From NCBI RefSeq assembly GCF_000953675.1, contig NZ_LN679998.1, forward strand, positions 1,819,963 through 1,843,962: a stretch of DNA of 24,000 nucleotides, read 5' to 3'. Under the pieces are notes generated by a model, which was not told the origin of the DNA, made no database searches, and saw nothing but the letters and a program-made list of their open reading frames with translations. The DNA is from Paraclostridium sordellii (GTDB lineage: Bacteria; Bacillota; Clostridia; Peptostreptococcales; Peptostreptococcaceae). Of this stretch, positions 5,266-20,524 are shown in pieces (positions within the stretch are counted from its first letter, which is position 1; every line of letters starts with the position of its first letter). Made by a program: the position numbers and the translations under genes.

Positions 5266-6024
5266 TTATTTTATTTCAGCTTTATTCTGATAATTGCTTT
5301 TTATAAATTCTAAAATCTGTTCAAATACCTCTTCGTGTTTTGGCCCTAAAGTTAAGCTATGTGTCCCCTTTTCTATCCATACGAGTTCTTTATTTTTGCT
5401 TGCGATTCCATTGTATAATGCGTATGCACTTTCTTTTTTAACTTGAGAATCATTTTTATCTTGTATTATCAATGTATCTGAATTTATACCTTTTAAACAA
5501 CTACTTGCAGCCCTAGACGCAAGATACAATTGATAGACTGAATGTATAGGAAATACATTATAATTTAACTTATATTTTCTATAATCATCATCAATATAGT
5601 TGTTTGTACTTTTCCATTCAGTATACTTTTTAAAATATTTTAAAATGCCCGTATATTTTACCCATCTATTATTAGGTTTAAGTGCACACGCTAAACATAT
5701 AAGTTTATCTACATGGTAGTTAGATGCTAACATTAAAGCTAAAAGACCTCCCATAGAATGTCCTATTACAACTACTTCTTCACATTCAAATAATAACTCT
5801 TCATATGCCTTTTCAACATCATTATACCAATCTATATAAGATACTTTTAGAAGTTCGTCATGATTAGTTCCATGTCCACTTAAAAGAATAGAATAAACTG
5901 TATATCCATTGTTATTTAAAAATTTAGCTAATGGATACATCTCTGCTGGCGTACTAGTAAATCCATGTATTAATAAACATCCAATTTCATTTCCAGCTAA
6001 CTTATATGATTTTTTAAAATCCAC
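5266..6024 (-). CDS. Alpha/beta-hydrolase, Est-type carboxylesterase / monoacylglycerol-lipase-like (252 aa)
   Basis: LLIHGFTSTP oxyanion region and GHSMGG nucleophile elbow. C-terminal D (KNDS) and H (GTHS) are catalytic candidates. GTG start at 6024 with GGGGAGA SD upstream. Confidence 0.75.
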   Translation of the reverse strand: MDFKKSYKLAGNEIGCLLIHGFTSTPAEMYPLAKFLNNNGYTVYSILLSGHGTNHDELLKVSYIDWYNDVEKAYEELLFECEEVVVIGHSMGGLLALMLASNYHVDKLICLACALKPNNRWVKYTGILKYFKKYTEWKSTNNYIDDDYRKYKLNYNVFPIHSVYQLYLASRAASSCLKGINSDTLIIQDKNDSQVKKESAYALYNGIASKNKELVWIEKGTHSLTLGPKHEEVFEQILEFIKSNYQNKAEIK

Positions 6025-6110
6025 GCTATCTCATCTCCCCTAATAACTCTCAAAATAATTACCAATTTATATATATAATTTATTTGATTTCTAAAATTAA
6101 CCTTTTTATA

Positions 6111-6139
6111 AGTATATCATTTATTAGGTTTTCTTACAA
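6111..6139 (-). promoter_or_regulatory. Putative sigma-A promoter of the esterase gene
   Basis: Minus strand reads TTGTAA (6139..6134), a 17-nt spacer, then TATACT (6116..6111). Confidence 0.35.
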
Positions 6140-6147
6140 TTTGAAAT

Positions 6148-6174
6148 AGCCTGTGTAATTTTTTACACAGGCTA
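6148..6174 (-). terminator. Terminator of the aminotransferase/ECF-S operon
   Basis: 11-bp stem AGCCTGTGTAA / TTACACAGGCT with a 5-nt loop, 4 nt after the stop codon. The T-tract is weak (ATTTCAAATT). Confidence 0.65.
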
Positions 6175-6177
6175 AAT

Positions 6178-6708
6178 TTATTTAATGTATTTTTTTAATA
6201 TTTTAGCTATAGGAACACCTATAACAATCCCAATTATTATTTGAGTTATGTTTCCTGGAATAGATGCTAGTGCTTGAATTTGATTTCCATACAAAATCAG
6301 TTCAGTTACAAAATATCCAAAAATCATCCATACTCCTGATACAATTATAGCTATGATATTTGTAAAAATATTATTCCCTTTTTTTCTATTTGACCAAGCA
6401 ATAGTTCCTATTATATATCCCATAATACCTCTAATTATAAAAGTAAATGGTGCCCAAATTACCCACTCTGATAGTAAATCAAATAAACCCATGCCAAAGG
6501 CTCCTGCAAAAGCTCCTTTTTTCTTTCCAAATACTATTGCAGATATAAATAACATAGTATTTCCTAAATGAACTAAACCCCCATTAGATGTTATGGGTAA
6601 TCTTATATTTATAAATCTTGTAGCAACAAATACTAATGCTATAAGTAAAGAGGTTTCTACCAAATCTATTGTTCTAATTTTTTGATTATTTTTATTTAGA
6701 GCTTCCAT
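6178..6708 (-). CDS. ECF-transporter S (substrate-capture) component-like membrane protein, substrate unknown (176 aa)
   Basis: About 6 hydrophobic helices. Size and pattern (TxLLIALVFVATRF.., GAFAGAFGMGLFDLL, final basic tail) are typical of ECF S components. Start is 17 nt after the aminotransferase stop, with SD GAGGGGGGAGA. Confidence 0.55.
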   Translation of the reverse strand: MEALNKNNQKIRTIDLVETSLLIALVFVATRFINIRLPITSNGGLVHLGNTMLFISAIVFGKKKGAFAGAFGMGLFDLLSEWVIWAPFTFIIRGIMGYIIGTIAWSNRKKGNNIFTNIIAIIVSGVWMIFGYFVTELILYGNQIQALASIPGNITQIIIGIVIGVPIAKILKKYIK

Positions 6709-6725
6709 TTTGCAATCTCCCCCCT

Positions 6726-17709: not shown

Positions 17710-18534
17710 ATGAAAAATTTTGTAGATTGCTGTTTTATCTCAGATTTTAAAAATATAGATAATCTATTTTTAATAGATTGTAGGTTTGACTTATTCGATC
17801 CTGATTTAGGGTATAAATTATATCAAATTGACCATATTCCAGGTGCTTTTTATTTAGATATAAATAAAGATATTTGTGGAAAACCTTCTATACATGGTGG
17901 TACGCGTCCACTTGCTGATATCAAAATTTTATCAAATAAACTTATAAATATAGGTATAACTATGAACTCCACTATTGTAGTCTATGATGAAAAAATATAT
18001 AGTTCACCTAGACTATTTCTTCAGTTAAAATACATGGGATATAAAAATGTATATATATTAAATGGAGGATTTAATGCGTGGAAATCTAATAATCTACCAA
18101 CTACATGTGAAATTCCAAAACTTAATTATAATGGATTCTTCAAAGAAAATTTAAACGAAAGTTTAGTTTGCAATATTGAATATGTTAAAAATACCATTAA
18201 CTCTAATGAAATTGTTTTAGTTGACTCTAGAGATAACAATAGATATACTGGAGAATTTGAACCTCTATACTCAAAGCCAGGTCATATACCAGGTGCAATA
18301 AATATTCCTTGGCATAATAATATATCTGCTAATGGTTATGTAAAAAGTTTAGATGAGATTAGTAATAATTTTTTACCATTAAAGGATAAAGAAGTTATTT
18401 TATATTGTGGATCATGTATAGAAGCTTGTATAAACTATGTGTTATTAGATGAACTTGGCTATAATTCTAAGGTTTATATAGGAAGTATGAGTGATTGGAT
18501 TAGTTATAATGATAATATAGTTGAAAAACTATAA
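17710..18534 (+). CDS. Tandem-rhodanese sulfurtransferase (thiosulfate/3-mercaptopyruvate sulfurtransferase-like), 274 aa
   Basis: Two rhodanese-like halves (..IDCR....GHIPGAFYL.. and ..VDSRDNNRYTGE.....GHIPGAINIPW). Active-site loop CGSCIEA in the C-terminal domain. SD AGGAGG 7 nt upstream of the ATG. Confidence 0.8.
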   Translation: MKNFVDCCFISDFKNIDNLFLIDCRFDLFDPDLGYKLYQIDHIPGAFYLDINKDICGKPSIHGGTRPLADIKILSNKLINIGITMNSTIVVYDEKIYSSPRLFLQLKYMGYKNVYILNGGFNAWKSNNLPTTCEIPKLNYNGFFKENLNESLVCNIEYVKNTINSNEIVLVDSRDNNRYTGEFEPLYSKPGHIPGAINIPWHNNISANGYVKSLDEISNNFLPLKDKEVILYCGSCIEACINYVLLDELGYNSKVYIGSMSDWISYNDNIVEKL

Positions 18535-18607
18535 ATATTTGAGTTTAAAATATTATAGTAATATGTTAAAATATCATAGTAAATTTACAATATCAAAGGA
18601 GACAGTC

Positions 18608-19138
18608 ATGAAAAGAGAATTTTTAACTAGTGAAAAAATTTTTTTACAACCAACTAAATTTGCAGATTTATTAGTAGATAGTTCAGGATATGTTGACTTA
18701 CATGAAAAATTATCCTCTAGTGATTTAGAATATAGCGATGATAAAGTTTTTGAGGTAGCTCCAAGTGGGTTTGTAGACTTTAATCAACATCTATATGAAG
18801 ATATAAACCACATGAACTCTATAAGCTGTGGTATATATCTAGAAAGATCCCTAATAACTTTTAGAATATTCTTATGGGGATCAAGAGGCGAAGGTTTTGA
18901 AATATTTAAGCATGTCTTAAGAGGTGATGAAATAGACTCTTTAAAATCTATTGAAGATATAAAATTTTATATGCATAAACATTTAGAAGAACTTGAAGAT
19001 GGTATATTAAAAACATATAGTATGAATGCACGCCATTCATTTGAACAACTTGGAATGGGTATAGAAAGCAAAAAGCTTCCGTTACATAGCATACTTCAGT
19101 TTATGAGTATAGATAACAATTTATCTGATTTTAGGTAA
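18608..19138 (+). CDS. Hypothetical protein (176 aa), no recognisable family
   Basis: Start reassigned to ATG 18608 (SD AAAGGAGA 6 nt upstream). The track's start at 18521 overlaps the rhodanese gene and has no SD. A strong terminator follows. No motif recognised. Confidence 0.6.
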   Translation: MKREFLTSEKIFLQPTKFADLLVDSSGYVDLHEKLSSSDLEYSDDKVFEVAPSGFVDFNQHLYEDINHMNSISCGIYLERSLITFRIFLWGSRGEGFEIFKHVLRGDEIDSLKSIEDIKFYMHKHLEELEDGILKTYSMNARHSFEQLGMGIESKKLPLHSILQFMSIDNNLSDFR

Positions 19139-19140
19139 TA

Positions 19141-19169
19141 AAAAAAGCTGTTAATCAACAGCTTTTTTT
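19141..19169. terminator. Bidirectional intrinsic terminator between convergent genes
   Basis: AAAAAAGCTGTT-AATC-AACAGCTTTTTT. A perfect stem flanked by an A6 run and a T7 run, so it serves both strands. Confidence 0.85.
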
Positions 19170-19171
19170 AT

Positions 19172-19915
19172 TTAATTATATAATATACCCATTTTTATTT
19201 TATCTTTTAAATCCTCATTTAAAGCTAATGTGAAAATCAAATCGCACTTACTATCTATTTTACTTTGTATATTTTCAAGCATTTCATTTAAAATTGATAA
19301 AACTTCTTCAATTTTACAGTAATCATTTCCTAAGCTTATAAATACTATTCCTTTTTTCTTAGTAAGTTCTTCATTAGTTTTTATTATAGACTCAAATAAT
19401 GATTCAACTAACTCATTATTATCCATAGATTTATCACTTTCAATAAATCCGTGAGCTAATCCTTTTTCTTTTGATAATATTTCTTTTAGATCCGTTAAGT
19501 CTATATTTATAGTACAATCTTCTGAAACAGATTCAACCATAAGATTTATTAACTCGCAAATTAAATCCCTATTTTCATCATTTATAACAAACTCTGCATT
19601 AAAATCAAATTCAACTTTCTTTTCATCATTGTTAACATCTAAACCTATAGATACTATTCTTCTCTCTTTTGCCATAAAGTTTACAGCTTTCACTATATCA
19701 CATGTTCTTTGTTCTTTAGAGTTATATGTTATAAATACAATTTCTATTTCATCAAGTATTTTTGCGGCATAATCCTTATCTATATCTTGATTAATTGATA
19801 TCTTTTCGGTAGATAGTATATTTTTATTATTTTTATAATTTACTATATATTCTAAACTTTTTATTCCATCATCACTTACTCCAATTACTTTTGCATATTT
19901 ATTATTAAAATCCAT
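19172..19915 (-). CDS. Compact FtsZ/tubulin-fold paralogue with degenerate nucleotide-binding loops (247 aa)
   Basis: By-eye alignment to FtsZ. AKVIGVSDDGIKSLEYI aligns with IKVIGVGGGGNNAVNRM (T1). IVFITYNSKEQRTCDIVKAVNFMAKE aligns with [26 protein letters not shown] (T4 signature lost). FVINDENRD aligns with IVIPNDRIL. INIDLTDLKEIL aligns with INLDFADVKTIM (T7). KGLAHGFIES aligns with KGSALMGIGIA. KGIVFISLGND aligns with QGVLMNITGGT. DLIFTLALNEDLKDKIKMGIL aligns with NMIFGSVINENLKDEIVVTVI. SD AAGGAG upstream of the ATG. Confidence 0.55.
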   Translation of the reverse strand: MDFNNKYAKVIGVSDDGIKSLEYIVNYKNNKNILSTEKISINQDIDKDYAAKILDEIEIVFITYNSKEQRTCDIVKAVNFMAKERRIVSIGLDVNNDEKKVEFDFNAEFVINDENRDLICELINLMVESVSEDCTINIDLTDLKEILSKEKGLAHGFIESDKSMDNNELVESLFESIIKTNEELTKKKGIVFISLGNDYCKIEEVLSILNEMLENIQSKIDSKCDLIFTLALNEDLKDKIKMGILYN

Positions 19916-20106
19916 AATATTACTCCTTAAAATTTTTAATATTTTTAGTAAAAATTCTATATATTTACTATTATTAACCTTTTATGATTTCTTAGTATTA
20001 TATTACTAAAATAACACTTCTTAGTAAAGTATTGATTTTTATAGAAAAATTTATAATATTATATAGTATAATTTACAATTGCCTACTGAATACGCTATAG
20101 ATAAAT

Positions 20107-20144
20107 AAAAAGGTCTATCAGTTAATAATTTGATAGACCTTTTT
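20107..20144 (-). terminator. Intrinsic terminator downstream of micro-ORF A
   Basis: AAAAAGGTCTATCA (20107-20120), 10-nt loop, TGATAGACCTTTTT (20131-20144). The minus strand ends TTTTTATTTAT. Confidence 0.75.
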
Positions 20145-20207
20145 AAGTATTTATATTTTCGGTGTGCAATTTTTATCCTCCTTGGATAATCAATTTAATT
20201 ATCATAA

Positions 20208-20291
20208 CTATTCAACTTCATAATCCGGTGAGTAATCATAGTCTTTTTCCATCTCATATCCAAAATACTCTAAAGTAATGTAGTTTTCCAT
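20208..20291 (-). CDS. Micro-ORF A, 27 aa: MENYITLEYFGYEMEKDYDYSPDYEVE
   Basis: ATG 20291..20289 and TAG 20210..20208. SD AGGAGG (core 20300-20304) lies 8 nt upstream. Paralogous to micro-ORF B. Below the 60-aa cutoff of the ORF track. Confidence 0.6.
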   Translation of the reverse strand: MENYITLEYFGYEMEKDYDYSPDYEVE

Positions 20292-20443: not shown

Positions 20444-20524
20444 TTATTCAGTTTTATAATCAGGTGTATAATCGTAAAGTAAGTCTAATTCATATTCAAA
20501 ATATACTATTTCATTATCTTTCAT
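20444..20524 (-). CDS. Micro-ORF B, 26 aa: MKDNEIVYFEYELDLLYDYTPDYKTE
   Basis: ATG 20524..20522 and TAA 20446..20444. SD GAGGAGG (20531-20537) lies 6 nt upstream. Its C-terminal 19 residues align without gaps to micro-ORF A (11/19 identical). Confidence 0.6.
   Translation of the reverse strand: MKDNEIVYFEYELDLLYDYTPDYKTE

Follow-up and report, generated by a model that had tools for sequence, protein, structure and literature searches.

A miniature FtsZ-derived protein of the Peptostreptococcaceae with replaced GTP-binding loops and a retained T7 face

In a 24,000-nucleotide stretch of the chromosome of Paeniclostridium (Clostridium) sordellii (the window), the open reading frame (ORF) at 19172..19915 on the (-) strand encodes a protein of 247 amino acids (aa) that belongs, by fold and homology, to the FtsZ/tubulin superfamily. 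We refer to it as mini-FtsZ. Its likeness to FtsZ had been noticed by eye in an earlier reading of the DNA (the original prediction), which gave the same position and length for the ORF, and the analysis presented here establishes that this likeness is true homology, far beyond chance. The coding sequence, which runs from an ATG start codon and includes the stop codon, is assigned to an FtsZ-derived pseudo-GTPase on the basis of the ORF listing, fold and profile homology, and the ratio of non-synonymous to synonymous substitution rates (dN/dS). The glycine-rich loops of the nucleotide face have been replaced, and the T7 loop and the C-terminal domain are kept. The protein ends in GILYN and is identical across many P. 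sordellii assemblies; in RefSeq it carries the label "hypothetical protein" and in ENA the label "cell division GTPase."

Searches with the single protein detect the C-terminal half only. The NCBIfam model TIGR00065 (ftsZ) matches residues 117-243 with an E value of 1.5e-7 and 31.1 bits against a cut-off of 295 bits, while the Pfam FtsZ_C model (PF12327) remains below threshold (E 0.042, 14.6 bits against a cut-off of 27 bits) and the Tubulin model (PF00091) gives no match to the protein at E<=10. Likewise, none of 36 family members passes a Pfam threshold, and PF00091 is matched in none of the 36. The M. jannaschii FtsZ in the Protein Data Bank (PDB) was found with E 0.002 using the single sequence and with E 7.7e-5 using the family profile. 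Profile-profile comparison with seven canonical FtsZ sequences gave a probability of 98.4% (E 1e-14), and comparison by hhalign with an alignment headed by Escherichia coli FtsZ gave 98.6% (E 7.7e-16), pairing residues 3-246 with E. coli residues 8-312. The residue mapping used throughout is taken from this hhalign alignment, with the E. coli numbering checked on K-12 ftsZ. An AlphaFold2 (AF2) model built from the 36 family members has a predicted local distance difference test score (pLDDT) of 91.4 and a predicted template modelling score (pTM) of 0.89. When this model was compared with the PDB using Foldseek, the best 50 matches were all FtsZ (E about 1e-11; template modelling score 0.72-0.74 on the query).

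The profile, AlphaFold and Foldseek searches that had been proposed as a check thus retrieve the FtsZ fold, and the similarity along the full length that had been claimed from inspection is borne out. The pairings drawn by eye for T1, T4, T7 and the C-terminal strands hold in the hhalign alignment. For T6 hhalign shifts the pairing by one residue, and the pairing with S2 is ambiguous, the single strand at residues 35-41 being a possible match for either S2 or S3. Matches to viral proteins are weaker than those to cellular FtsZ (phage FtsZ, E 3.5e-6; PhuZ, E 1e-3). Pfam matches to IF2_N at residues 37-57, seen in 12 members with E values of 0.04-0.1, were judged to be due to chance because they are located on a loop and helix of the FtsZ fold.

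The nucleotide face of mini-FtsZ differs from that of FtsZ in nearly every loop. The T1-equivalent loop, residues 12-19 (GVSDDGIK; 19859..19882, (-) strand), aligns with E. coli G17-N24 (GVGGGGGN) and is conserved in the family as GxGEDGI; the E. coli glycines G19, G20 and G21 are replaced by Ser, Asp and Asp (GVSDDG for GVGGGG). The T4-equivalent segment, residues 63-73 (TYNSKEQRTCD; 19697..19729, (-) strand), stands in place of the tubulin signature GGGTGTG. In the hhalign alignment NSKEQRTCD is paired with GMGGGTGTG, so that K67, E68, Q69, R70, T71, C72 and D73 correspond to E. coli G105, G106, G107, T108, G109, T110 and G111, and no glycine is found at the signature positions across the family. 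The replacement of both glycine loops, claimed at the outset, is therefore correct. Deletions account for much of the reduced size: about 15 residues are missing at E. coli 41-55 (T2/H2), about 19 at approximately 63-81 (T3 and the N-terminal part of H3), two times seven in T5/H5, and 18 at 172-189 (the H6-H7 loop and the N-terminal part of H7). The predicted losses of T2/T3 and of H7 are thus upheld, with hhalign sizes of about 15 plus 19 and of 18 residues. The last deletion removes the equivalents of E. coli L178, F182 and D187, of which we take F182 and D187 to be guanine contacts and L178 to be a residue of the top face. The N-terminal domain of the AF2 model has five strands compared with six in FtsZ, and lacks H2/S3, H5 and H6.

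The chain stops at N247, the invariant last residue of the family, which is aligned to E. coli A312. Since this is immediately after S10, there is no C-terminal linker or anchor-binding peptide, as had been anticipated. Taken together, the features that define a canonical FtsZ, namely GGGTG(S/T)G in T4, GxGGGGxN in T1, T3 with the start of H7, the linker and tail, and scores above the family cut-offs, are all missing from mini-FtsZ. Judged from its sequence, the protein is predicted to have neither GTP-dependent polymerisation nor GTPase activity.

On the opposite face the situation is reversed. The T7 loop and the start of H8, residues 136-145 (INIDLTDLKE; 19481..19510, (-) strand), were identified from the hhalign alignment and from family conservation. 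Here I136, N137, D139 and D142 correspond to E. coli M206, N207, D209 and D212 (INIDLTD and MNVDFAD, respectively). In 36 close members residues 136-142, 144 and 145 never vary, L143 being the sole exception in the segment. In the broad family, which reaches down to about 30% identity, D139, D142 and E145 remain conserved at 90% or more. The N-x-D-x-x-D pattern that the original prediction had read as retained is present in the window protein, and its two aspartates are kept family-wide at this level; its asparagine is not conserved in divergent members. H8 and the whole S7-S10 domain are also present in the hhalign alignment, where the C-terminal strands IFTLALNEDLKDKIKMGIL are paired with VIGTSLDPDMNDELRVTVV. 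Hydrophobic equivalents are kept at two further positions, I136 for E. coli M206 and V205 for L272, the latter lying at the start of H10 according to the alignment. Both M206 and L272 are presumably on the bottom polymerisation face of E. coli FtsZ. PMC7010359 reports the substitutions M206E and L272E solely in combination with L178E, as second-site mutations.

The former nucleotide face has not merely lost its glycines. At the former T2/T3 site, with deletions on both sides, lies a rebuilt loop formed by residues 42-49 (NQDIDKDY; 19769..19792, (-) strand), and it begins the most conserved stretch of the family, residues 42-55 (NQDxDKDYxRxLLD), as judged from a 23-sequence alignment spanning the family. 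Within it D46 and K47 are at least 90% identical in the broad family. Next in conservation are T7/H8, the end of H4 through S5 (MAxERRxxSIG), and T1 (GxGEDG), while H7, H9, H10 and the T5-like loop are variable. Because the segments at the former T2/T3 and T1 positions are strongly conserved, the nucleotide face is rebuilt rather than decayed, having been converted into a conserved acidic site (GxGEDG, NQDxDKDY) that may have its own ligand or partner. The description of the GTP-binding loops as "erased" is accordingly right in that the glycine loops are gone, but it misses their replacement by a different, acidic and conserved sequence.

We searched 1.84 billion representative proteins exhaustively with a hidden Markov model (HMM), which returned only 67 matches at E<=1e-3. 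About a dozen full-length clusters at 50% identity constitute the family, the remaining matches comprising genuine FtsZ, fragments and further motif-poor FtsZ-like proteins. One protein of 290 aa, P0020, was left out of the family profile; a segment of about 47 residues (VRALLDG...LNSSN) occurs twice within its chain, owing either to an error of assembly or to a true tandem duplication. According to genome and cluster look-ups, the family occurs in Paeniclostridium, Paraclostridium, Romboutsia, Terrisporobacter, Asaccharospora, Faecalimicrobium, Peptacetobacter, Intestinibacter and Metaclostridioides mangenotii, all of them Peptostreptococcaceae; the look-ups found no member in Clostridioides difficile. 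Intact copies of the gene are present in about 40 species. Among seven orthologues (the window gene and six from Paraclostridium/Paeniclostridium), pairwise dN/dS ranges from 0.06 to 0.17, with values around 0.1, and the mini-FtsZ gene is therefore under purifying selection.

The family is undescribed: there is no match to Pfam or NCBIfam at threshold, the RefSeq label is uninformative, and the family does not appear in the FtsZ/tubulin surveys (PMC9871819, PMC2875224), in agreement with the earlier statement that no described family could be recognised. Our literature search found no described FtsZ-like protein for Peptostreptococcaceae or P. sordellii. Surveys of the superfamily rely on the GTP-binding domain or on the signature motif (PMC9871819, PMC2875224), and the family is absent from such Pfam- and motif-based surveys because its members do not reach a Pfam threshold and never match PF00091. 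For the same reason FtsZ, which is considered universal and single-copy in Firmicutes, was scored there as a single gene (PMC8136486), a result that the mini-FtsZ family contradicts.

Outside the window clade the genomic setting offers a possible clue. Of the 40 genome loci that we fetched, 39 have a called ORF of the family, and in 30 of the 40 a gene for the transporter QueT (queT; PF06177, E 1e-41) is located directly 5' of the mini-FtsZ gene, in the same orientation and 3-178 nt away. In the locus L007, for example, queT is at 5441-5944 and mini-FtsZ at 5974-6720. The linked genera are Romboutsia, Terrisporobacter, Asaccharospora, Faecalimicrobium, Intestinibacter and Metaclostridioides (about 30 loci of L007-L039, together with L041 and L042); the link extends to Metaclostridioides and Intestinibacter even as the other neighbours change. 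From the sequence this arrangement looks like an operon. It is missing in the window and in all Paraclostridium/Paeniclostridium loci, in Peptacetobacter, and in three divergent lineages. In Paraclostridium bifermentans queT is found elsewhere in the genome, followed by a metallophosphoesterase gene, and tblastn detected no queT remnant in the 770-nt upstream spacer, in the rest of the window, or in L001-L006. Because the link is not universal, we treat it as a lead and not as a function.

In most Romboutsia-type loci queT is itself preceded by a conserved preQ1-I-like element, AGACAGTTCGnAAnCCTCCTGTCTnTAAATAAAACTACGG (L007 5263-5309), and a terminator. The terminator follows the element, and its 5' arm, CCGTAG, can pair with the ACTACGG tail. 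The name "preQ1-I-like" derives from the sequence pattern only; Rfam scores the element at just 11.6 bits against a gathering score of 39 bits. The Terrisporobacter loci have a different leader 5' of queT. A purine riboswitch (RF00167, 76 bits) is located at 1046-1146 on the (+) strand of L038, about 5 kb upstream of the Peptacetobacter homologue and before an unrelated gene.

The contrast between a replaced nucleotide face and a retained T7 face leads us to propose tentatively, and with somewhat less than even confidence, that mini-FtsZ could be a pseudo-GTPase that donates its T7 face to canonical FtsZ, tuning FtsZ assembly or turnover as a sequestering or GTPase-activating modulator. Beyond the retention of the T7 face, all steps of this mechanism are what we infer. 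In FtsZ filaments the GTP bound on the top face is hydrolysed only on contact with the bottom T7 loop of the next subunit (PMC7010359). The bottom, C-terminal face marks the plus end and is the target of SulA, MciZ and MinC, and a binder of the N-terminal, minus-end face has been predicted either to nucleate or stabilise filaments or to sequester FtsZ (PMC11938149). Mini-FtsZ would not polymerise alone. Its T7 face would dock on the GTP-bearing top (N-terminal, minus-end) face of an FtsZ monomer or filament end, and no FtsZ could add onto the top face of mini-FtsZ in turn, because that face is without nucleotide, T3 and the H6-H7 loop. The bound FtsZ would be kept from adding to a growing plus end, and its GTP would be exposed to D139 and D142, so that hydrolysis would probably be stimulated. 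The invariance of these two aspartates favours a catalytic role over mere binding. At high dose mini-FtsZ would thus sequester FtsZ and activate its GTPase, while low doses might nucleate additional short filaments. In a more specific and rather unlikely version, the protein would be a nucleotide-free "half-subunit" on the minus-end face of FtsZ, acting as a GTPase-activating cap or seed in trans and exerting lineage-specific control of the Z-ring; its acidic pocket would provide a regulatory input, possibly one linked to 7-deazaguanines in the queT-linked genera.

Several observations weigh against a role as T7 donor to FtsZ. The asparagine of NxDxxD, kept in close members, is variable in divergent ones (S/Y/A/E). 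The conservation of the former nucleotide face (residues 42-55, T1, and the end of H4 through S5), which a pure T7 donor would not need, hints at another ligand or partner, and the adjacency to queT suggests a different process. No division or sporulation gene is present near mini-FtsZ in the window, and none is a conserved neighbour in the relatives. Finally, the presence of a canonical ftsZ in the P. sordellii genome is assumed from the universality of FtsZ in Firmicutes (PMC8136486).

Alternatively, the FtsZ fold may have been put to a use that has nothing to do with FtsZ, with the acidic site (GxGEDG, NQDxDKDY, TY) binding a new ligand or partner and T7/H8 kept for structural or allosteric reasons. 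The candidates would be a cation, a cationic 7-deazaguanine such as preQ1 or queuine, or the QueT/energy-coupling factor (ECF) transporter itself. We regard such re-use as unlikely, though it is in keeping with the position of queT in the 30 loci and in Metaclostridioides and Intestinibacter despite their changing neighbours, with the preQ1-I-like element and terminator before queT, and with the finding that conservation is highest on the former nucleotide face, which is acidic rather than glycine-rich. However, it gives no reason for the invariant T7 aspartates. Moreover, the window clade, Peptacetobacter and the three divergent lineages lack the queT link, P. bifermentans has its queT elsewhere, before the metallophosphoesterase gene, and the riboswitch match is far below threshold. 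Since every queT-linked genome is from a single bacterial family, the adjacency may also reflect an inherited operon. The conservation of both the bottom (T7/H8) and the top (12-19, 42-55) surfaces could alternatively be that of a self-complementary interface. Mini-FtsZ, having the fold of a filament former, would then make a nucleotide-independent homodimer or head-to-tail homopolymer in which T7/H8 binds the acidic/K47 top face of the next molecule, a static scaffold that does not act on FtsZ. This is a still less probable arrangement, as T3 and the H6-H7 loop, which make the longitudinal contacts of the top face, are deleted, no membrane anchor or tail is available for recruitment, and both faces are acidic (D139/D142 and D15/D16/D44/D46/D48), so that bridging cations would be needed.

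The remaining two explanations take the protein as either more or less than what it seems. A still GTP-binding, self-polymerising FtsZ paralogue with unusual motifs would be compatible with the overall FtsZ fold, with the invariant T1 residue G17, and with the retention of the strand that leads up to the T6 Asn-Asp position. It is very improbable given that all five glycines of GGGTGTG and the T1 glycines G19-G21 have become bulky or charged residues, that T3 is missing together with the H7 counterparts of E. coli F182 and D187, and that PF00091 gives no match even at E values of 1-10. Loss of motifs and shrinkage also resemble decay, as would be expected of a functionless relic of an ftsZ duplication, but the selection analysis (dN/dS about 0.1) contradicts decay. 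The gene is intact in the roughly 40 species and in the P. sordellii assemblies, its ribosome-binding site (RBS) and promoter block are conserved, and the AF2 model is a compact fold of high confidence, which leaves the relic with hardly any credibility.

Comparison with known systems places mini-FtsZ nearest to canonical FtsZ (TIGR00065; PF00091 plus PF12327), with which it shares the two-domain fold, the order of elements, and T7, H8 and S7-S10. The differences are in size (247 aa compared with 383 aa in E. coli), in the T1/T4 glycines, and in the linker and C-terminal peptide, which mini-FtsZ lacks. TubZ and PhuZ are set apart by the weaker viral matches and by the chromosomal context of mini-FtsZ. 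The closest functional precedent for the proposed donation of a T7 face is found in the plant protein ARC3, whose FtsZ-like domain is a module derived from FtsZ that targets genuine FtsZ and does not form a ring. ARC3, a chloroplast division inhibitor, directly inhibits Z-ring assembly, and a reference-list entry attributes to it an enhanced GTPase activity of FtsZ2 (PMC12232670; ARC6-ARC3 preprint). Unlike mini-FtsZ, ARC3 is a large eukaryotic multidomain protein (middle domain, MORN) that is regulated by ARC6 and PARC6. SulA, MciZ and MinC are likewise small proteins that occupy a polymerisation face of FtsZ and cap or sequester it (PMC11938149). They are not FtsZ homologues, however, and they bind the C-terminal, bottom (plus-end) face, whereas the site for a T7 donor would be on the other side, at the N-terminal nucleotide face.

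FtsZl1 and FtsZl2 (Makarova and Koonin 2010, PMC2875224) are, like mini-FtsZ, divergent branches of the FtsZ-tubulin superfamily that had gone unnoticed until remote-homology methods were applied. Both keep GGGTG(S/T)G (PMC2875224), which mini-FtsZ does not have. FtsZl1 has no recognisable T6-H7-T7 or FtsZ C-terminal domain and carries coiled-coil and alpha-helical C-terminal extensions (PMC2875224), so that mini-FtsZ is its mirror image. The distributions also differ: FtsZl2, with a C-terminal region of about 300 aa, is restricted to Proteobacteria, and FtsZl1 occurs in diverse bacteria and archaea (PMC2875224), whereas mini-FtsZ is a Firmicute protein without extensions. A similar pattern of loss is seen in a set of motif-poor proteins of 235-460 aa, comprising P0080 and P0082 from Romboutsia and the metagenomic P0083, P0088, P0098, P0103 and P0078, the metagenomic ones looking unrelated, which have lost the T1/T4 glycines and kept a D-x-x-D T7 (E-x-x-D in P0098). 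Their matches to the profile are weak (E 4e-7 to 9e-4), they are far more distant from mini-FtsZ, and some are longer. P0080 and P0082 represent a second FtsZ-like paralogue of about 302 aa in which the T1/T4 glycines are gone and a VDYED T7 is kept; the P0080 type was found only in a few Romboutsia (7 clusters), namely Romboutsia ilealis, R. faecis, R. maritimum and Romboutsia sp. Marseille-P6047. Derivatives of FtsZ that have kept only T7 may thus be a recurrent theme beyond the mini-FtsZ family.

If mini-FtsZ does act on FtsZ, it would be a bacterial regulator built from FtsZ itself, addressing the nucleotide face that SulA, MciZ and MinC leave unused (PMC11938149), and it would offer a natural means of studying the polarity of filaments, their nucleation and the activation of the GTPase. 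If a queT-linked role is true instead, the FtsZ fold would have been recruited to a non-cytoskeletal role. The clade that carries the gene includes pathogens as well as gut commensals (P. sordellii, Paraclostridium, Romboutsia, Terrisporobacter).

In the window the mini-FtsZ gene is monocistronic. It is preceded by an RBS, AAGGAG (19923..19928, (-) strand), read from the sequence 7 nt before the ATG and invariant in six species. Further upstream, a block of about 60 nt, AAAAATCAAYACTTTACTA...TTATTTTAGTAATATAnTACTAGAAA (19979-20044, (-) strand), is conserved in the six species while the remaining spacer diverges. This block contains a probable sigma-A-type promoter at 20000..20028 ((-) strand), the function of which is suggested by the conserved -35 TTTACT (20028-20023) and -10 TAATAT (20005-20000) separated by 17 nt; in relatives it overlaps a TAGTA-N6-TACTA palindrome. 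Three TACTA/TAGTA half-sites are present in the block and may form an operator. The block is restricted to the Paraclostridium/Paeniclostridium clade and is absent 5' of the queT-linked homologues. No sigma-E/F/G/K-like promoter could be seen by eye in it, so the idea of a role in asymmetric septation is left without support. At the other end the gene shares a hairpin terminator (19137..19172, no strand assigned) with the convergent gene at 18521-19138; its RNA fold has -16.7 kcal/mol and a z of -7.8, and a U run follows. The neighbouring genes are metabolic, encoding L-lactate dehydrogenase, a thioesterase, a rhodanese and a glycoside hydrolase, with mini-FtsZ located between ldh and the rhodanese gene. 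Rfam gave nothing at the gathering threshold in the window. Defence or phage genes were also considered and rejected, as PADLOC had no match and the single PHROGs match, to a family of unknown function, was faint (E 0.007).

For the convergent ORF (18521-19138, (+) strand), which encodes up to 205 aa (176 aa in relatives), Pfam, PHROGs and PADLOC give no match; its conservation beside mini-FtsZ is limited to the Paraclostridium/Paeniclostridium clade (7 loci, cluster c17). Two micro-ORFs upstream of the mini-FtsZ gene on the (-) strand, MKDNEIVYFEYELDLLYDYTPDYKTE (20444-20524) and MENYITLEYFGYEMEKDYDYSPDYEVE (20208-20291), are paralogues of each other, each with a strong RBS. The original prediction had suggested profiling them together with the mini-FtsZ gene. 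They are, however, transcribed as a unit of their own, closed by a strong terminator at 20106..20145 ((-) strand; RNA fold -20.9 kcal/mol, z -7.7), which is also found by the terminator scan, and because this terminator closes the micro-ORF unit the mini-FtsZ gene is isolated from it. No maturase or transporter gene is adjacent to the micro-ORFs. The pair is conserved directly 5' of the mini-FtsZ gene in loci L001, L002, L005 and L006, with one peptide only in L004. The peptides are acidic and rich in tyrosine and share the motif YFxYExxxxYDYSPDYxxE.

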